Numbered from the stretch's first letter, positions 8,701-52,519 are shown. The stretch is 64,000 nt of DNA from Syntrophobacterales bacterium (GCA_037441775.1 JBBIRO010000011.1:1708-65707); one strand, 5' to 3'. The notes: generated by a model from the letters alone, not told the origin. Made by a program: numbers and translations.

Positions 8701-8816
8701 GGTTTAGGGATTATATTCTTTCTGCCTTAAGATATTGGACACAGTTCAAGAATTCTTAAAAAAATTTCCGAGAAGGCGTAAAGAAAACCTTCCCGGAAAT
8801 AGTGGCGCCGTTAAAA

Positions 8817-9941
8817 CTATTTGAGCTCCGTAAAGACGCCCTTCTTCACCTGATACACCGAGAAGCCGACGCCGATGGCATCACCCTTCTTGTCGAACTT
8901 GACCTTGCCCAGCGGGGTGTCAACTTCCTGGCCGCGAAGGACCGCTTCCACTTTGGCCGCTTCCGTGCTGCCAGCCTTCTGGATGGCGTTTAAGAGAGCC
9001 TGCGTGGCGGCCACCGCGTTGAGGAAAAAGGCGCCGGGATCAGCTCCGTAAGCTTTCTTATGGGCGTCATTGAAGGCCACGGCGAGGGGATTTTTCGAAA
9101 CATCACGGGGGCCCGTGGCATATACGCCTTCGGCGCTCTTGCCGGCGACCTTGATGAAGGTGTCATCCTTAACTCCATCGGCGGAGATGAAATTGGTTTT
9201 CATCTTCTTTTTTCTCATAAGCATCACGATGGAAGAGGCTTCCGGGTGATAGCCGCCATAAATCACCGTATCCGCCTTGGCCTGCCTGATCTTCTGGACA
9301 ATCGCCGAGTAATCCACCGCCCCGGGGGTGATGCCTTCGAAGAGAACGATTTCGGCGGTTTTCGCTTCCTCGACGAACTTCTTGGCAAACTCTGCATACC
9401 CCTTGCCGTAGTCACCCTTGTCATGAACAATGGCTATCTTCTTGGCTTTCAATTTGTTGAGGGTAAAATGCACTCCCAACTTGGCCTGATCGTCATCGGC
9501 GGCGATGGTGCGGTAGAAATTGGGAAAGTCGCCCGACTGGGTCAGGGCGGGATTAGTAGCGGAAGGAGAGATGGCGATCACCTTGGCGTCCTTGTAAATC
9601 CCCAGCGCAGCCCTGGTTGCGCCGCTGCAGACATGCCCTACCACCACATGAACACCTTTGGACACGAGCTTCGTCGCCGTATTGGTGGCCAGTTCCGGTT
9701 TGCAGACGTCATCTTCAACCAGAAGCTCCACCTGACGGCCCAGGACACCGCCTTTGGCGTTGATCTCCTTGACTACCAGTTCCGCCGCCTTGATGGACGG
9801 AATACCGTAGGAGGCAAGGTCACCGGAATGAGGCCCCGCAACGCCGAGCTTGATTGTCTCCTGGGCTAAAGCCATACCGGTAAACAAAAATAAAGAAATG
9901 ACCAATGTGGAGATAACGTTCCCGAACAACTTCTTCTTCAT
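8817..9941 (-). CDS. Branched-chain amino acid ABC transporter substrate-binding protein (LivJ/K type)
   Basis: Signal peptide followed by a type-I periplasmic binding fold (IKLGVAGPHSGDLASYG). First gene of the liv-type operon. Confidence 0.85.
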   Translation of the reverse strand: MKKKLFGNVISTLVISLFLFTGMALAQETIKLGVAGPHSGDLASYGIPSIKAAELVVKEINAKGGVLGRQVELLVEDDVCKPELATNTATKLVSKGVHVVVGHVCSGATRAALGIYKDAKVIAISPSATNPALTQSGDFPNFYRTIAADDDQAKLGVHFTLNKLKAKKIAIVHDKGDYGKGYAEFAKKFVEEAKTAEIVLFEGITPGAVDYSAIVQKIRQAKADTVIYGGYHPEASSIVMLMRKKKMKTNFISADGVKDDTFIKVAGKSAEGVYATGPRDVSKNPLAVAFNDAHKKAYGADPGAFFLNAVAATQALLNAIQKAGSTEAAKVEAVLRGQEVDTPLGKVKFDKKGDAIGVGFSVYQVKKGVFTELK

Positions 9942-10060
9942 AAATCCCTTCCTCCCTGTTTAAAGTAGATATAAATAAGCGAATTACCCGAGTCTTTCTA
10001 ACCAGAAACAGGCAATCCCGTCAAGTCAAAAATACTGTCTAGAGAGTCCCTTCGCGTCAT

Positions 10061-12275: not shown

Positions 12276-12350
12276 CGATTTTTTACCACGCCGTCAAGCA
12301 TTGCGAATTCGTAAAAAGTCCGCACTCCCCTCACTTTTCTTTTCCCCCTT
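12276..12350. repeat. R/L T-motif junction plus CGCACTCC...TTTTCTT module
   Basis: cgattttttaccacgccgtcaa (R), then ttgcgaattcgtaaaaagtc (L), then cgcactcccctcacttttcttttccc. The same junction architecture occurs at 44607-44660. Confidence 0.6.
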
Positions 12351-19417: not shown

Positions 19418-19474
19418 CAACAGGCTGAAGGGAGCCCATTAATATCCGGCGAAACATATTGGAAAAAGGGGGTC

Positions 19475-20038
19475 ATGATGATCGGATTAGTTAAGATTGA
19501 CGAACTCGTAAAAAGTCGTAAAAATGTGAGTTTCAGAACGGCTTTGCAACAAGGCCGCGGTCAAGGCGCGCAAATCCCGAAAAATGAGAGGGACTTTCCA
19601 CACGCCGCACTGACGAAGGATTTAGCGCAACGCCACATCCGATCTTTTTGCAAAGCCGTCAAGATTGTTCTTTGTATCATTCCGTTACTGCTCACCGCTT
19701 GTGATGGCGCCATAAGCGTAGGTGGCAGGACCATCGGGGTTCAATCGGGAAAGTTTATTTTCAGCGATGGTTTTGTCCAGACCAACTTCCCCTACCCCTA
19801 TGAGCGGACCTGGGCCGCCGCAGAAAAGGCCATGCTCGACCTGAAGGCGCAGGACATAATGAAAATGGAGCGTATCGGCCGCGGTGAGATCAAGGGCCTG
19901 ATCAAAGACGAGACGGTGACTGTTGCGGTTAAGCATATCCAGAGGGAAGGAACTGCCGTTGCGGTCCGCGTTGGTCTGGTGGGAAACAATATCGCCGCCC
20001 AACTGATTCTGGAACGGGTGGCCCGCAACCTGCAGTGA
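19475..20038 (+). CDS. Putative small lipoprotein whose signal peptide is interrupted in frame by a 162-bp repeat element
   Basis: GGGGG RBS then ATGATG. Removing 19499-19666 gives MMIGLVKIVLCIIPLLLTAC, a lipobox signal peptide. The intact ORF reads through the element. Confidence 0.55.
   Translation: MMIGLVKIDELVKSRKNVSFRTALQQGRGQGAQIPKNERDFPHAALTKDLAQRHIRSFCKAVKIVLCIIPLLLTACDGAISVGGRTIGVQSGKFIFSDGFVQTNFPYPYERTWAAAEKAMLDLKAQDIMKMERIGRGEIKGLIKDETVTVAVKHIQREGTAVAVRVGLVGNNIAAQLILERVARNLQ
19499..19660. repeat. T-motif-bounded element B (162 bp) inside a lipoprotein gene
   Basis: L end gacgaactcgtaaaaagtc and R end gatctttttgcaaagccgtc. Flanked by direct AAGATT copies at 19493-19498 and 19661-19666. 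Confidence 0.75.
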
Positions 20039-20080
20039 TAGCTGCCGCCAGAGATGGAAGCATCATCAAAATTAATTTTC

Positions 20081-20270
20081 GCGGCTTCACAAAAAGTCCG
20101 GACGCTTACGTTCATGATAAATCCCTCGTCACTCCAGACGTAAGCTGTAGGGGCGTGCTTCATGACCGCCCTTCTCATTCATCTTGATTTGCCGCTTAGG
20201 CCTTGCGAACTTTTTACGTGCCGTCCGAAAATTGCAGTTTTACGGAGTTTTGACTGTTTCATCAATTCTA
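20081..20270. repeat. T-motif-bounded element C with extended R-side module
   Basis: L gcggcttcacaaaaagtc and R gaactttttacgtgccgtcc, followed by gaaaattgcagttttacggagttttgactgtttcatcaattcta, which is ~90 percent identical to 35031-35073. Confidence 0.7.
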
Positions 20271-24964: not shown

Positions 24965-25561
24965 ATGGATATCAAATCGGAAAGAGTCATCCTGGCCTCG
25001 GCTTCACCTAGGAGAGTCGAACTTTTGAGCCCGCTTTTGGGCGCCCTAGAAGTGATTCCCAGCGGTATAGACGAAGTACCCCTGGACGGGGAGGGACCGG
25101 CGGAGCATGTCCGGCGGCTGGCGGAGGAAAAGGCGCGCCAAGTGGCCAAGGCCTATCCGGACGTCTGGGTAATTGGCGCGGACACGGTCGTTTTCATCGA
25201 CGGCATGATCATGGGAAAGCCGGTGGATGCCGTAGCCGCCCGGGCCATGCTCGCCAGGTTAAGCGGCCGCCAGCACCTGGTTTATACCGGCTTTAGCATC
25301 ATGAAACTGGCGGCGGGACAAAAGTTGAACCAGGTTGTGGAATCCGCCGTCATCTTCCGCAAGATACCGGCGGATGAGATGAACTGGTACTTGAATTCCG
25401 CTGAACCTTACGACAAGGCCGGCGCTTATGCAGTCCAGGGTCAGGGCGCGTTTTTCATCCGGGAAATTCGTGGTTCATACACCAACGTGATGGGGTTGCC
25501 CCTTTGCGAGCTGGTCGATTCTCTCAAGTCGCTGGGGGTAATTGCCTTTAGCTATAGGTGA
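24965..25561 (+). CDS. maf: Maf-like nucleoside triphosphate pyrophosphatase
   Basis: ILASASPRR start motif and GAYAVQG. The ORF-track start at 24848 is an upstream extension that overlaps the SemiSWEET gene. Confidence 0.9.
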   Translation: MDIKSERVILASASPRRVELLSPLLGALEVIPSGIDEVPLDGEGPAEHVRRLAEEKARQVAKAYPDVWVIGADTVVFIDGMIMGKPVDAVAARAMLARLSGRQHLVYTGFSIMKLAAGQKLNQVVESAVIFRKIPADEMNWYLNSAEPYDKAGAYAVQGQGAFFIREIRGSYTNVMGLPLCELVDSLKSLGVIAFSYR

Positions 25562-25763
25562 TGACCTCGTAAAAAAGCACCGATCTGTCATATTGCCAAG
25601 GCGGACGCGGGCAGGAATGCCCGAGGCTACGGAGGCTTTACAAAAAATGGCAACGATTCGGTCTTAAGGAGCGGTGCTTGATTATCATGCCTGCAATAGC
25701 TATAAAGGCAACCCTCTTTCTTTAGGGGAGAGGGTGCTTGTGACTTTTTTACGAAGGCGTCAT
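25559..25763. repeat. T-motif-bounded composite element D (205 bp)
   Basis: L gatgacctcgtaaaaaagc, an internal L-like ggaggctttacaaaaaatgg, and R gacttttttacgaaggcgtcat. Carries module P (25592-25630) and the hairpin ccctctttctttaggggagaggg. Confidence 0.75.
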
Positions 25764-26469: not shown

Positions 26470-26623
26470 CGCTTTTTTTCAAGAAAAGACTAAAAAAGAA
26501 TAGTTCAAAATGATTTTGACCAGCACTGCCTTGAGGCCATGGGGTTTGCCACAATATAGTTTGACAAAGCCTGGGTAATGGTCTAGGTTGTAGGCAGGTC
26601 ACAAAACAGGTTACCGTCAAAAC

Positions 26624-26716
26624 TGACTACCCCGTGAAAAGTAACCGCGACGTCATTACCACGCGGGCGAAAATGACAAAATGTGAAGTTTCCCGACTTT
26701 TTACGCAGGCGTCAAA
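26624..26716. repeat. T-motif-bounded element G (93 bp)
   Basis: L tgactaccccgtgaaaagtaacc and R cgactttttacgcaggcgtcaaa. The core is homologous, in opposite orientation, to the core at 44556-44606. Confidence 0.75.
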
Positions 26717-26736
26717 ACTTAAATAGAGGTTTCAAT

Positions 26737-50056: not shown

Positions 50057-51775
50057 ATGAAGAAGATTTTAGCTTTATTGTTGGGATTTATAATAATAAT
50101 TGGCTCATACGGAGTACTCAAGGCTCAGGATAAGAAAATTGTCGCCGTCATTCCCTTTACCGTCTATAGCGCCGAGAATATCGATTACATTCGCCAGGGC
50201 GTATCAGGAATACTTTCATCGCGACTGGCCGCATCCGACAAGATTGAGGTTACAAATCGCGAGGCAATAGCCGAGGCTCTAAAAGCTCTTGGCGTAAGAG
50301 AGCCTTCCGGCGCAGATGTCGAGTCTGTGGGAAAGGCGCTAAAAGTTCATTACGTTGTTTGGGGAAGCCTGACCAAAATCGGCAGCAGTGTCAGCATCGA
50401 TGCCAAGTTGTCCGAAATTACGACGGCCAAGCCTCCGGTAAACTTTTTTTCCCAAACGCAAAACCTAGACGAAATCATTCCTCGCACTAGCGAAGTCGCC
50501 GAACGGATTGCACGCCAGGTAACAGGAACGCAGCAATTGGCAGGCCAGCAGATTGAACCTCAGGCGCGCCCATCGGGGTCGGCGACATTACCCGTGCCTC
50601 CTCCCCCGGCCGGCAGTTCCCGGGAGGCGGAAATCATATCTTCGCTACGTGGCGGAGGCAAAAAGGCCACCTTTACCTCAATCATTAATCCTGACTTCAT
50701 CAACGTGCCTGGATCAACCGGTTTAGACCGGCGCGGCTTTTGGATGAGCAATGACTTCCCAAATGAATTCAAAGGAATGGACATCGGCGATGTCACCGGA
50801 GACGGCATGAATGATGTGGTAATGATAGATTCGACCAACATATTCATCTATCAGAAGAAAGGTCAGGAATTTAAACAGATCCACCATATTAGAGGTAAGT
50901 CTTACGACAATTATCTTTCCGTCGATGTGGCCGATATTAACAGAAACGGCATCAAAGAAATTATCGTCACCAATATCAACGAGACCCTTCTCAATTCCTT
51001 CGTCCTGGAATTCCGCGATGGGAAGTTCACGCAAATCGCATCGGACATAAGACTGTTTCTGAGAGTCATCAGCCCCGATGGCAAGGAACCAGTATTGCTC
51101 GGACAGAATTTCGGCAGCGACGCTATTTTCAATTCGCCGATACATGAAGTGGTCTGGCGTAACGGCCAGTACCAGCCAGGGAAAAGAATGAAGATACCCC
51201 AGGGGCTTCCCATTTACGGCCTCACGATCGACAGTCTCGCCGCCGGAGGGGAAAAGATAATAGTGCTCAATGATTTTGATAATATCACCCTTTACCATCC
51301 TACTGACAAGCCCCTGTCCCGTCTAGCCGTGTTTGGCGGCGCCAAAGAACTGATCTACCGTAGCGAAGAGCCTTTCGGCGGATCGAATAATTATCTGGCG
51401 CCAACCTCAAGTAGTAGAAATCCCGTCATCGATCAGGTCAATAACACATACCTTAACTTAAGAATATTGACCTACGATCTCGAGGGCAAGGGCAAAAGGG
51501 TAATCATAATCCCGAAAAACTCGTCCCCAATAGGCCGGGTCTTAAGCAATGTCAAACTGTTCACGAGCAGCGAATTATACTGCCTCTCCTGGGATGGGCT
51601 GGGTATGGCGGAAAACTGGCGGTCAAGAAAGATAAACGGCTACGTGGCCGACTACCAGATAAAGGACCTGAACAACGACGGCAAGGATGAAATAGTGATG
51701 ATTCTGGTTCGCGAACATGGAACCGGTAGAAAGGGGCATTCGGTGCTGGTTTCTTACGATCTTACCGTTAATTGA
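50057..51775 (+). CDS. Secreted FG-GAP/VCBS-repeat protein
   Basis: Signal peptide plus repeated D-x-N/D-x-D-G-x-x-E/D calcium-type motifs (DVTGDGMNDVVMID, DINRNGIKEIIVTN, DLNNDGKDEIVMIL). Its stop TGA lies inside a T motif. Confidence 0.7.
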   Translation: MKKILALLLGFIIIIGSYGVLKAQDKKIVAVIPFTVYSAENIDYIRQGVSGILSSRLAASDKIEVTNREAIAEALKALGVREPSGADVESVGKALKVHYVVWGSLTKIGSSVSIDAKLSEITTAKPPVNFFSQTQNLDEIIPRTSEVAERIARQVTGTQQLAGQQIEPQARPSGSATLPVPPPPAGSSREAEIISSLRGGGKKATFTSIINPDFINVPGSTGLDRRGFWMSNDFPNEFKGMDIGDVTGDGMNDVVMIDSTNIFIYQKKGQEFKQIHHIRGKSYDNYLSVDVADINRNGIKEIIVTNINETLLNSFVLEFRDGKFTQIASDIRLFLRVISPDGKEPVLLGQNFGSDAIFNSPIHEVVWRNGQYQPGKRMKIPQGLPIYGLTIDSLAAGGEKIIVLNDFDNITLYHPTDKPLSRLAVFGGAKELIYRSEEPFGGSNNYLAPTSSSRNPVIDQVNNTYLNLRILTYDLEGKGKRVIIIPKNSSPIGRVLSNVKLFTSSELYCLSWDGLGMAENWRSRKINGYVADYQIKDLNNDGKDEIVMILVREHGTGRKGHSVLVSYDLTVN

Positions 51776-52011: not shown

Positions 52012-52083
52012 TTTGACGGCTTCGTAAAAAGTCAAAAGCCAGCTCTCCCATGAGGGGAGAGGGTTCTTGAATGTTGTGACGCG
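52012..52083. repeat. Element M (short): an L terminus, a hairpin and a degenerate R terminus, 14 nt upstream of a tRNA gene
   Basis: tttgacggcttcgtaaaaagtc, then ctctcccatgaggggagag, then cttgaatgttgtgacgcg. Confidence 0.65.
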
Positions 52084-52096
52084 TTTTTTTCGCTTC

Positions 52097-52173
52097 GGCG
52101 GTGTAGCTCAGATGGTTAGAGCATGCGGCTCATATCCGCAGTGTCCGGGGTTCGATTCCCTGCACCGCCACCA
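52097..52173 (+). tRNA. tRNA with CAT anticodon (elongator Met, or Ile2 if modified)
   Basis: Hand-folded cloverleaf: acceptor GGCGGTG/CACCGCC, anticodon loop CTCATAT, T-loop TTCGATT, encoded CCA. It lacks the initiator-specific features. Confidence 0.85.
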
Positions 52174-52293
52174 TTTATATTTAATTCGGGCCTTCCAATG
52201 CATTATGGCATTTCTTGGCCATATGCGACCACCTCCCTGACGGCAATCGCCAATATGAACCTGAAATTTTGTGCCTAAACAGCAATATCACCT

Positions 52294-52332
52294 AAAAAAA
52301 GGGGTTAACTTGAAAAGTTAACCCCTTTTAAT
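52294..52332. terminator. Bidirectional intrinsic terminator between convergent tRNA genes
   Basis: AAAAAAA-GGGGTTAAC-ttgaaaa-GTTAACCCC-TTTTAAT: a 9-bp perfect stem flanked by an A-run and a T-run. Confidence 0.7.
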
Positions 52333-52333
52333 C

Positions 52334-52410
<77 letters not shown>

Positions 52411-52443
52411 GCTGTTTATATATGCCTTTGTCAGCAGTTTTCC

Positions 52444-52519
52444 TGGTAGGCGGAACAGGACTTGAACCTGTGACATCCACGGTGTAAGCGTGGCGCTCTG
52501 CCGACTGAGCTACCCGCCT
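52444..52519 (-). tRNA. tRNA-Val (TAC)
   Basis: Minus-strand fold: acceptor AGGCGGG/TCCGCCT, anticodon stem CCACG/CGTGG, loop CTTACAC, T-loop TTCAAGT and CCA. Confidence 0.9.

Follow-up and report, generated by a model that had tools for sequence, protein, structure and literature searches.

A MITE-like repeat element inserted in frame within the signal-peptide coding region of a DUF3568-type lipoprotein gene of a Syntrophobacterales bacterium, with probable retention of function

Can a lipoprotein gene accommodate a mobile repeat between the first codons and the hydrophobic core of its signal peptide, and can it still work afterwards? The question is raised by one locus in a stretch of 64,000 nt (hereafter the window) of a Syntrophobacterales bacterium (GCA_037441775.1 JBBIRO010000011.1:1708-65707). 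A reading made from the sequence alone (hereafter the sequence-only reading) had described a repeat element inserted in frame inside the signal peptide and flanked by a direct repeat of 6 bp. It had further proposed that such elements are, or were, mobile and duplicate their target, and that the gene either tolerates a 56-residue insertion or is silenced. The coordinates given there were all confirmed by direct reading and by script, as were the GGGGG, the ATGATG, the AAGATT pair with 162 bp between its copies, and the lipobox; the features of the locus are collected in Table 1.

Table 1. Features of the interrupted lipoprotein gene and of the inserted element (positions counted from the first letter of the window)
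Feature	Coordinates	Strand	Basis
DUF3568/Flpp3-like lipoprotein gene with insertion	19475..20038	+	ORF list, 187 aa; 186 aa from ATG 19478
GGGGG, Shine-Dalgarno-like, 5' of ATGATG	19468..19472	+	direct reading: AAAAAGGGGGTCATGATG
left copy of target AAGATT, codons K7-I8	19493..19498	+	direct reading; single counterpart AAGGTT in L001
MITE-like element body, 162 bp	19499..19660	+	missing in L001 orthologue; full-length match to family
outer T-motif TTGACGAACTCGTAAAAAGTC	19497..19517	+	18/20 to family consensus
inner T-motif, degenerate, GAACGGCTTTGCAACAAGGCC	19537..19557	+	alignment A4; host-frame translations of 21 copies
inverted terminal T-motif, reverse complement TTGACGGCTTTGCAAAAAGAT	19642..19662	-	16/20 to consensus
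right copy of target AAGATT, codons K63-I64	19661..19666	+	direct reading and script
hydrophobic core and lipobox, KIVLCIIPLLLTA followed by C	19661..19702	+	hydropathy peak aa 61-68; lipobox regex, Cys 76
mature lipoprotein domain, intact	19703..20035	+	dN/dS 0.169 vs L001 orthologue; AlphaFold pLDDT 85-93

The gene lies among genes for a TraB/PrgY-like protein, a rhomboid protein, a PAS-GGDEF protein and a PUA-SAM methyltransferase. Direct reading and script give AAAAAGGGGG, then TC, then ATGATG at 19475-19480. Both ATG codons that had been named as the start are thus present; the start codon is probably the second one (19478, 186 aa) rather than the first, since the ATG of the gene at the orthologous locus L001 (see below) aligns with the second ATG and the public gene calls comprise 186 aa. 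The identical 186-aa product is already on record (P0001). The protein with the insertion (the filled protein) matches Pfam DUF3568 (PF12092) with E=8e-15 and 55.4 bits (cut-off 23.2), and the match, residues 64-185 to profile positions 6-124, begins right after the insert; the 131-aa protein restored by removal of the insert scores as well (57.2 bits). In the AlphaFold model of the filled protein, residues ~100-187 have a pLDDT of 85-93, and residues 1-44 are below 50. The best Foldseek matches are Francisella Flpp3 structures (6pny/9nlt/2mu4; E 1e-6 to 1e-4). The mature domain of the host protein hence resembles Flpp3 (PDB 6pny, 2mu4) in fitting both Pfam DUF3568 and the Flpp3 fold; unlike the host protein, with which it shares 16-19% identity, Flpp3 has an ordinary, short signal peptide.

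Removal of the element together with one copy of the repeat, 168 nt in total, yields MMIGLVKIVLCIIPLLLTAC, so that a lipoprotein signal peptide with an L-T-A-C lipobox is restored, as had been claimed. The right AAGATT (19661-19666) is directly followed by KIVLCIIPLLLTAC; the lipobox is encoded at 19691-19702, with the Cys codon at 19700-19702. The direct repeat is actually identical over 7 nt (AAGATTG), a G being next on both sides, and the chance of identity at all six flank positions is about 1%, calculated as the product of shuffled-partner column frequencies with the flank composition of the family. The length of the element becomes 166 bp if the TT and AA of TTGACG...CGTCAA are counted in. 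The 56 inserted codons contain no stop, as previously stated; one of the six frames of the element is open, namely the host frame, which gives a low-complexity peptide of 54 aa, and the other five are closed; in the two remaining forward frames the stops are a TGA and a TAA that belong to the outer T-motif itself.

The element carries at its ends the 20-nt terminal motif (T-motif) of a repeat family, TTGACGnCTTCGTAAAAAGTC. The window contains 29 T-motif sites with at least 14/20 matches, often as facing pairs, versus 1-8 sites in 20 shuffles. The insert aligns at 66-77% over essentially its full length with copies in many genomes; 96 BLAST matches to it, many of them full-length, were obtained in the fetched loci, the family has more than 90 copies at unrelated loci, and the best match (L009, 77%) is in the same MAG as L001. 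Facing pairs in the loci from the T-motif scan fall into size classes of 128-129, 136, 155-157 and 187-188 bp. An exact scan for the 20-nt motif, with one genome per species, gave at least 120 stretches; nearly all of the matches listed are in MAGs of Desulfobacterales, Desulfobacteraceae, Desulfosudaceae, Syntrophaceae/Smithellaceae and Desulfatiglandales. The exact motif is, among these matches, common to several orders of the Thermodesulfobacteriota. No match was found among the viral contigs of IMG/VR (T-motif, 0 matches) or the plasmids of PLSDB, and Rfam has no family that covers the element, whether judged by the gathering threshold or by E<=1.

An alignment of 21 copies (A4; window 19493-19666 and loci L001-L125) shows the order outer T-motif, 8-20 nt, inner T-motif, core, and inverted T-motif. 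Each element thus has three T-motifs in an asymmetric arrangement, the outer and inner at one end and one at the other, around a core that is rich in GC and has the hairpin GGCGTAC...GTACGCC at its centre. In the RNAalifold prediction, the inner T-motif pairs with the inverted T-motif of the right end, the outer T-motif is unpaired, and each pair of the core stem shows 5-9 double (compensatory) changes. The copy in the lipoprotein gene is decayed, with the central hairpin lost and the inner and right T-motifs degenerate; its DNA fold is not significant (z = -1.2) because the central hairpin has decayed.

Several neighbouring features of the family may be recorded here. At 12285-12320 of the window, two family termini stand back to back (GCCGTCAAGCATTGCGAATTCGTAAAAAGTC), and inverted CGTCA remnants are found 5' of other ends at ~26612, 34930 and 38670; these arrangements suggest that copies inserted next to or into one another, or that sites like the element's own ends are preferred. 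T-motifs at 51772, 52013 and 52576 cluster round the tRNA genes at 52097-52519; the one at 52013 is a perfect 20/20 match 84 bp 5' of tRNA-Met, and its TTGACG resembles a -35 hexamer.

For the target-site duplication, the family data were compared with the 6 bp that had been proposed for the AAGATT pair. In the logo of the flanks, TTGACG is preceded by A (77%), A/T, n, n, and copies read AAnnTTGACG...CGTCAAnnTT. Of 98 automatically paired termini, 35 have the same central dinucleotide on both sides versus 7.7 expected, with a maximum of 17 in 1000 shuffles of the partners. By column, identity versus shuffled partners is 0.86 versus 0.51 at position -3, 0.89 versus 0.47 at 0 and, slightly raised, 0.94 versus 0.79 at +1; there is no excess at -5 and +2, and -4 is uninformative. 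In a second column test, for which termini were located without their outer six bases, non-consensus bases were shared versus mismatched in 9 versus 4 cases both at -3 and at 0, in 0 versus 4 at -4, and in 3 versus 3 at +1. By these counts the duplication spans no less than 4 bp (AnnT) and no more than 6 bp (AAnnTT); targets show so strong a preference for the outer A and T that 6 bp are inseparable from 4 bp. The AAGATT duplication itself is real, and its length is fixed by the family only as 4-6 bp. A 4-bp duplication would imply that the element ends in 5'-TG...CA-3', and 6 bp, with a body GACG...CGTC, are admissible as well; all readings lead to one and the same excision product. A 2-bp duplication with terminal inverted repeats (TIRs) beginning at TTGACG was rejected because non-consensus bases at -3 and 0 are common to both flanks. 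Targeting of sites similar to the element's own abutted ends (CGTCAA-nn-TTGACG) and site-specific recombination were also set aside, as the AAnnTT preference and the duplication together account for what look like 7-8-bp repeats near 20.06 kb and 26.6 kb.

Small size, lack of transposase coding, TIRs, target-site duplication, dispersed copies and presence/absence polymorphism are characters of a miniature inverted-repeat transposable element (MITE), and these are found here. By its sequence characters the element is classed as a MITE-like non-autonomous transposon, because it matches the family over its full length and is flanked by a 4-6 bp duplication of an AAnnTT-like target. A search of ~0.88 Mb revealed no element that has T-motifs as its ends and carries a transposase, and no cognate IS is known for the T-motif family; T-motif pairs 400-6000 bp apart were considered as possible autonomous elements and rejected, since the four long pairs enclose ordinary host genes, for example permease genes and the rhomboid gene.

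Alignment with orthologous loci had been set beforehand as the test of an insertion. A search with the restored protein recovered P0001, which is filled, and five homologues of 129-130 aa (85, 73, 64, 53 and 48% identity), none of which has the 56-residue segment. The first of these (P0002, 85% amino-acid identity) is encoded at locus L001, on a MAG contig of 44 kb (GCA_947085375.1) that has the gene order of the window (TraB, rhomboid, DUF3568, PAS/GGDEF, methyltransferase). The DNA of L001 reads ATG ATA CGA CTA GTT AAG GTT GCC CTT TGC ATC ATC CCG without interruption, with a single AAGGTT at the exact site, and its pairwise alignment with the window has one gap of 168 nt, which is exactly the element and one copy of the repeat. 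By this alignment L001 represents the orthologous empty site with a single AAG(G/A)TT.

The exact 186-aa product is encoded in three more assemblies (GCA_964457235.1, SRR11582140 and SRR11582139), which are counted as independent strains because 20-21 of 2561 positions are different in them and in the window (~0.8%). The same insertion, including the AAGATT duplication, is present in L005 (100%) and in L006 and L007 (99.4%) over 19493-19666, and the duplication is thus reproducible. Neither the restored-protein search nor an exact scan of the JGI metagenome contigs revealed an empty allele from this species; among the JGI contigs the predicted empty junction has 0 exact matches.

That the gene originally had the 56-residue segment and the relatives lost it precisely, or that the segment is an artefact of assembly, can be regarded as effectively refuted. 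Deletion between direct repeats of 6-7 bp is mechanistically possible, and nothing specific points to it here; the segment is, however, a full-length copy of a repeat dispersed over unrelated loci in many genomes, is bounded by family termini and a typical AAnnTT duplication, and is missing in the homologues down to 48% identity as well as in the Pfam model. The three independent assemblies that carry the insertion speak against an artefact. In-frame insertion into the signal-peptide coding region is thus documented by family membership, target duplication, an empty site and persistence among strains, and we have very little doubt that the insertion event is real.

The mobility of such elements, proposed in the sequence-only reading, is borne out by the TIRs of the family, the duplication statistics and the empty sites in comparison with L001. 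Over their 20 kb of common sequence (dS ~0.5), the window and L001 differ by at least four further insertions, in both directions, and the comparison indicates that the family is one that has been mobile since the lineages of the window and of L001 split. The lipoprotein gene had been put forward as the clearest case of mobility in the window. The case is clean, and it is not the sole one: at 26619-26719, a short copy with an 89-bp body is flanked by a perfect AAAACT duplication, L001 is uninterrupted there (ATCGTAAAATTTGAA), and this insertion is as clean as that in the lipoprotein gene. A copy at 20074-20269 (body 20080-20263, 184 bp; flanks AATTTT/AATTCT) has a doubled T-motif at its right end and fills the spacer between the stop of the DUF3568 gene and the start of the PAS-GGDEF gene, which measures 251 bp in the window versus ~55 bp in L001, where the copy is lacking. 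At 25558-25763, a copy at the 3' end of maf, with the TGA stop of Maf within the element terminus (GTGATGAC), parts maf from the downstream Ala_racemase_N (YggS-like) gene; the two calls overlap in L001. In the opposite direction, L001 has at 8790-8964 an element-B-like copy at the TraB stop codon (flanks TTTTTT/ATTTCT), where the window is empty (TTTTCT); it is in opposite orientation to the window insert and ~68% identical to it over the full length and 80% over a 72-bp core. L001 also has a partial terminus at 9944-9968, 30 bp 5' of the start of its DUF3568 gene.

Among the ~15 copies in the window, the one in the lipoprotein gene is the only intragenic copy. Two further hosts were considered and rejected: the real start of the thiolase gene lies 3' of the element, and in maf the element sits at the end of the gene. 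A peptide search against 1.8 billion representatives gave five short ORFs only, which are translations of other copies. P0007-P0011 from public protein collections, and likewise 1908-2066 of L128, are 'proteins' of 52-126 aa with ...RRQGAQI..AAMTKD.AQRSIRTFYEAV; short proteins of this type almost certainly go back to spurious gene calls, for which the repeat is the seed. P0011, which ends in ...AVKIVLK, was examined as a second insertion into a DUF3568 gene and dismissed, its locus being unrelated and adjoining a T2SS pseudopilin gene.

With the insertion established, the explanation that we favour, with a probability of roughly 0.6, is that of a MITE-like insertion followed by continued function of the gene via a long, cleaved signal peptide. 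An element of 162-166 bp transposed into codon 8/9 of the DUF3568/Flpp3-type gene, presumably mobilised in trans by a putative DDE-type transposase that binds the repeated motifs, and its insertion duplicated the AAnnTT-type target AAGATT. The gene has stayed one ORF because exactly 168 nt were added and are read in the element's only stop-free frame. Translation through the insert would make a signal peptide grown from 19 to 75 residues the likeliest product. The 56 extra residues, hydrophilic and with a net charge of +7, would form a cytoplasmic extension of the n-region, and the original hydrophobic core and L-T-A-C lipobox would still direct export, lipidation and cleavage by signal peptidase II. 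We propose that the insertion is tolerated because the extension is cleaved off and the mature protein is unchanged.

The properties of the precursor bear on this proposal from two sides. The insert peptide has 12 K/R and 5 D/E, and the hydropathy peak of the filled protein stays at residues 61-68. Lipoprotein signal peptides are commonly recognized by the PROSITE PS51257-type rule, which combines the pattern {DERK}(6)-[LIVMFWSTAG](2)-[LIVMFYSTAGCQ]-[AGS]-C with a Cys at positions 15-35 and a K/R within the first seven residues. LCIIPLLLTAC fits the pattern in the filled and in the restored protein. By position, the restored protein (Cys20, K7) is within the rule, and the filled protein (Cys76, K7) is outside it; the filled precursor is thus atypical and would escape the standard rules of annotation. 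Its hydrophobic core of 12 residues, 63 residues away from the N-terminus, may be poorly recognized. Export of the filled precursor is plausible rather than proven, because Cys76 breaks the usual positional rule (15-35).

This geometry, with Cys76 far outside the usual range, is also what speaks for a gene that was killed by a real insertion, and that persists either as a young pseudogene, open by luck, or as the source of a precursor that is made and not exported. The sequence-only reading had left tolerated insertion and silencing side by side; signs of selection in the ORF, in dN/dS and in the synonymous changes disfavour silencing, which we consider unlikely. The element copy looks old, with degenerate inner and right T-motifs and the hairpin lost, yet 187 of 187 codons are intact, as are the RBS and the start codon. 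An open frame is not what the family would generally provide, with one of six frames open in this copy. When the 21 full-length copies were translated in the host-equivalent frame, 18 contained stops, and only the window copy and L043 were both stop-free and frame-preserving; random insertion of the family into coding sequence would thus very rarely leave an ORF, because only 1 of the 20 other copies has both properties. The codon at 19547-19549 is CAA, and L009, L079 and both copies in L001 have TAA there in frame; a repair of TAA after insertion was considered and downgraded, as P0008 and P0011 carry CAA or GAA at this place, and the source copy may already have been open at this codon.

Constraint on the coding sequence argues in the same direction. 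The dN/dS of the host gene versus L001 (0.163) equals that of the neighbouring genes (rhomboid, 0.156; TraB, 0.101), as an average over both lineages that includes the time preceding the insertion. The strain-level signal consists of three substitutions only (19528, 19804 and 19873), all of them in third positions and synonymous, and one of them lies within the insert. On the side of a killed gene, the window has 8 derived replacements versus 5 in the sister lineage, which is not significant in a relative-rate count, and three otherwise invariant positions are changed in the window alone: H155, R158 and G160 are unique, where the five homologues have Y, K and E, respectively. These changes may hint at slightly relaxed constraint, or at adaptation in the lineage that bears the insertion.

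Expression could alternatively start from the element itself, with the outer T-motif as a promoter (TTGACG-17 nt-AAAAAT), GTG 19526 or TTG 19544 as the start codon, and the original start as a decoupled remnant; we judge this to be very unlikely. As the script confirmed, no ATG, GTG or TTG is in frame between the element and the lipobox, in agreement with the earlier claim, and the only such codons before the lipobox are those at 19475 and 19478 and, both within the element, GTG 19526 and TTG 19544. The promoter-like match (9/12 at 19497-19525) and these two in-frame codons would be compatible with a start in the element. The match is weak, however, with 2 found in the region versus 0.6 expected; neither GTG 19526 nor TTG 19544 has a Shine-Dalgarno sequence within 20 nt upstream; GTG 19526 is GTA in L006 and L007; and the original strong RBS and ATG are conserved. 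An internal start would in any case leave an extension of 40-58 residues, and the main picture, an original lipobox behind a long n-region, would be the same.

Like the classical MITEs (Correia/NEMIS, ERIC, RUP, Chunjie of Geobacter uraniireducens, and bcr1 of Bacillus cereus), the members of the T-motif family are non-coding, 90-250 bp long and able to fold back, have TIRs and a target-site duplication, exist in many diverged copies, and are present in some relatives and absent from others. Tolerated insertions have precedents in ERIC copies within genes and in Chunjie copies within operons, and the Chunjie MITEs of Geobacter are MITEs in a related group. Unlike these, the T-motif is without a literal match in the literature searched, and the family has three asymmetric motif copies, a 4-6 bp AAnnTT duplication, and an exact motif that extends, among the matches listed, across several orders. 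No description of the family was found in the literature searched, which covered MITEs of sulfate reducers as well as the motif sequence, and the family is apparently undescribed.

Rickettsia palindromic elements (RPEs) were reportedly described by Ogata et al. in 2000. In Rickettsia, in-frame insertion of such small (~150 bp) palindromic repeats in genes is known, and intragenic ERIC elements are likewise established as in-frame insertions of small palindromes (PMC10969869). The similarity lies in a small palindromic repeat placed in frame within a gene, with the added peptide tolerated by the protein. RPEs differ in being often intragenic with a conserved peptide, whereas the T-motif family is overwhelmingly intergenic and its copies are mostly stop-bearing (18/21), with no recurrent in-frame use seen; furthermore, the host phylum is another one, the T-motif family has clear TIRs and target duplication, a relationship in sequence is not to be expected, and the likeness is that of a functional analogue only. 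In-frame tolerance of MITE-like elements is already known; here the element is inside a cleavable lipoprotein signal peptide.

For long signal peptides, too, there is a precedent: Sec signal sequences that exceed 50 residues are documented in which a charged extension at the N-terminus is combined with a C-terminal part that targets autonomously (PMC2805444). The extended signal peptides of autotransporters (EspP, 55 residues) resemble the filled precursor in that a charged N-terminal extension precedes an autonomous Sec signal, and they are exported and cleaved (PMC2805444). Their extensions, in contrast, measure ~25 residues, are conserved and have evolved in situ; that of the filled precursor has 56 residues and is of transposon origin, the signal is of type II, and its function is predicted from sequence.

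The T-motif family might be a phylum-wide family of structured mobile elements whose invariant 20-nt motif and covarying core stem are kept up by a function other than selfish transposition, such as the binding of a conserved protein of the host or of a transposon, or a role as RNA; the copy in the lipoprotein gene might then have been co-opted, and not just tolerated, as an N-terminal extension that modulates the timing or route of export. We regard this as rather improbable.

If the gene continues to function as proposed, this locus, for which filled and empty sites are both in hand, would be a natural example of a mobile element that survives in the discarded part of a protein, and it is a ready test of the limit of n-region length for lipoprotein export. 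Rule-based annotation, with its limits for the position of Cys and its choice of start codons, would mis-call such genes. The locus also documents the T-motif family as a repeat that is abundant across genomes of the Desulfobacterales/Syntrophales type, that appears to have been active since close lineages split, and that seeds spurious 'proteins' in the databases.
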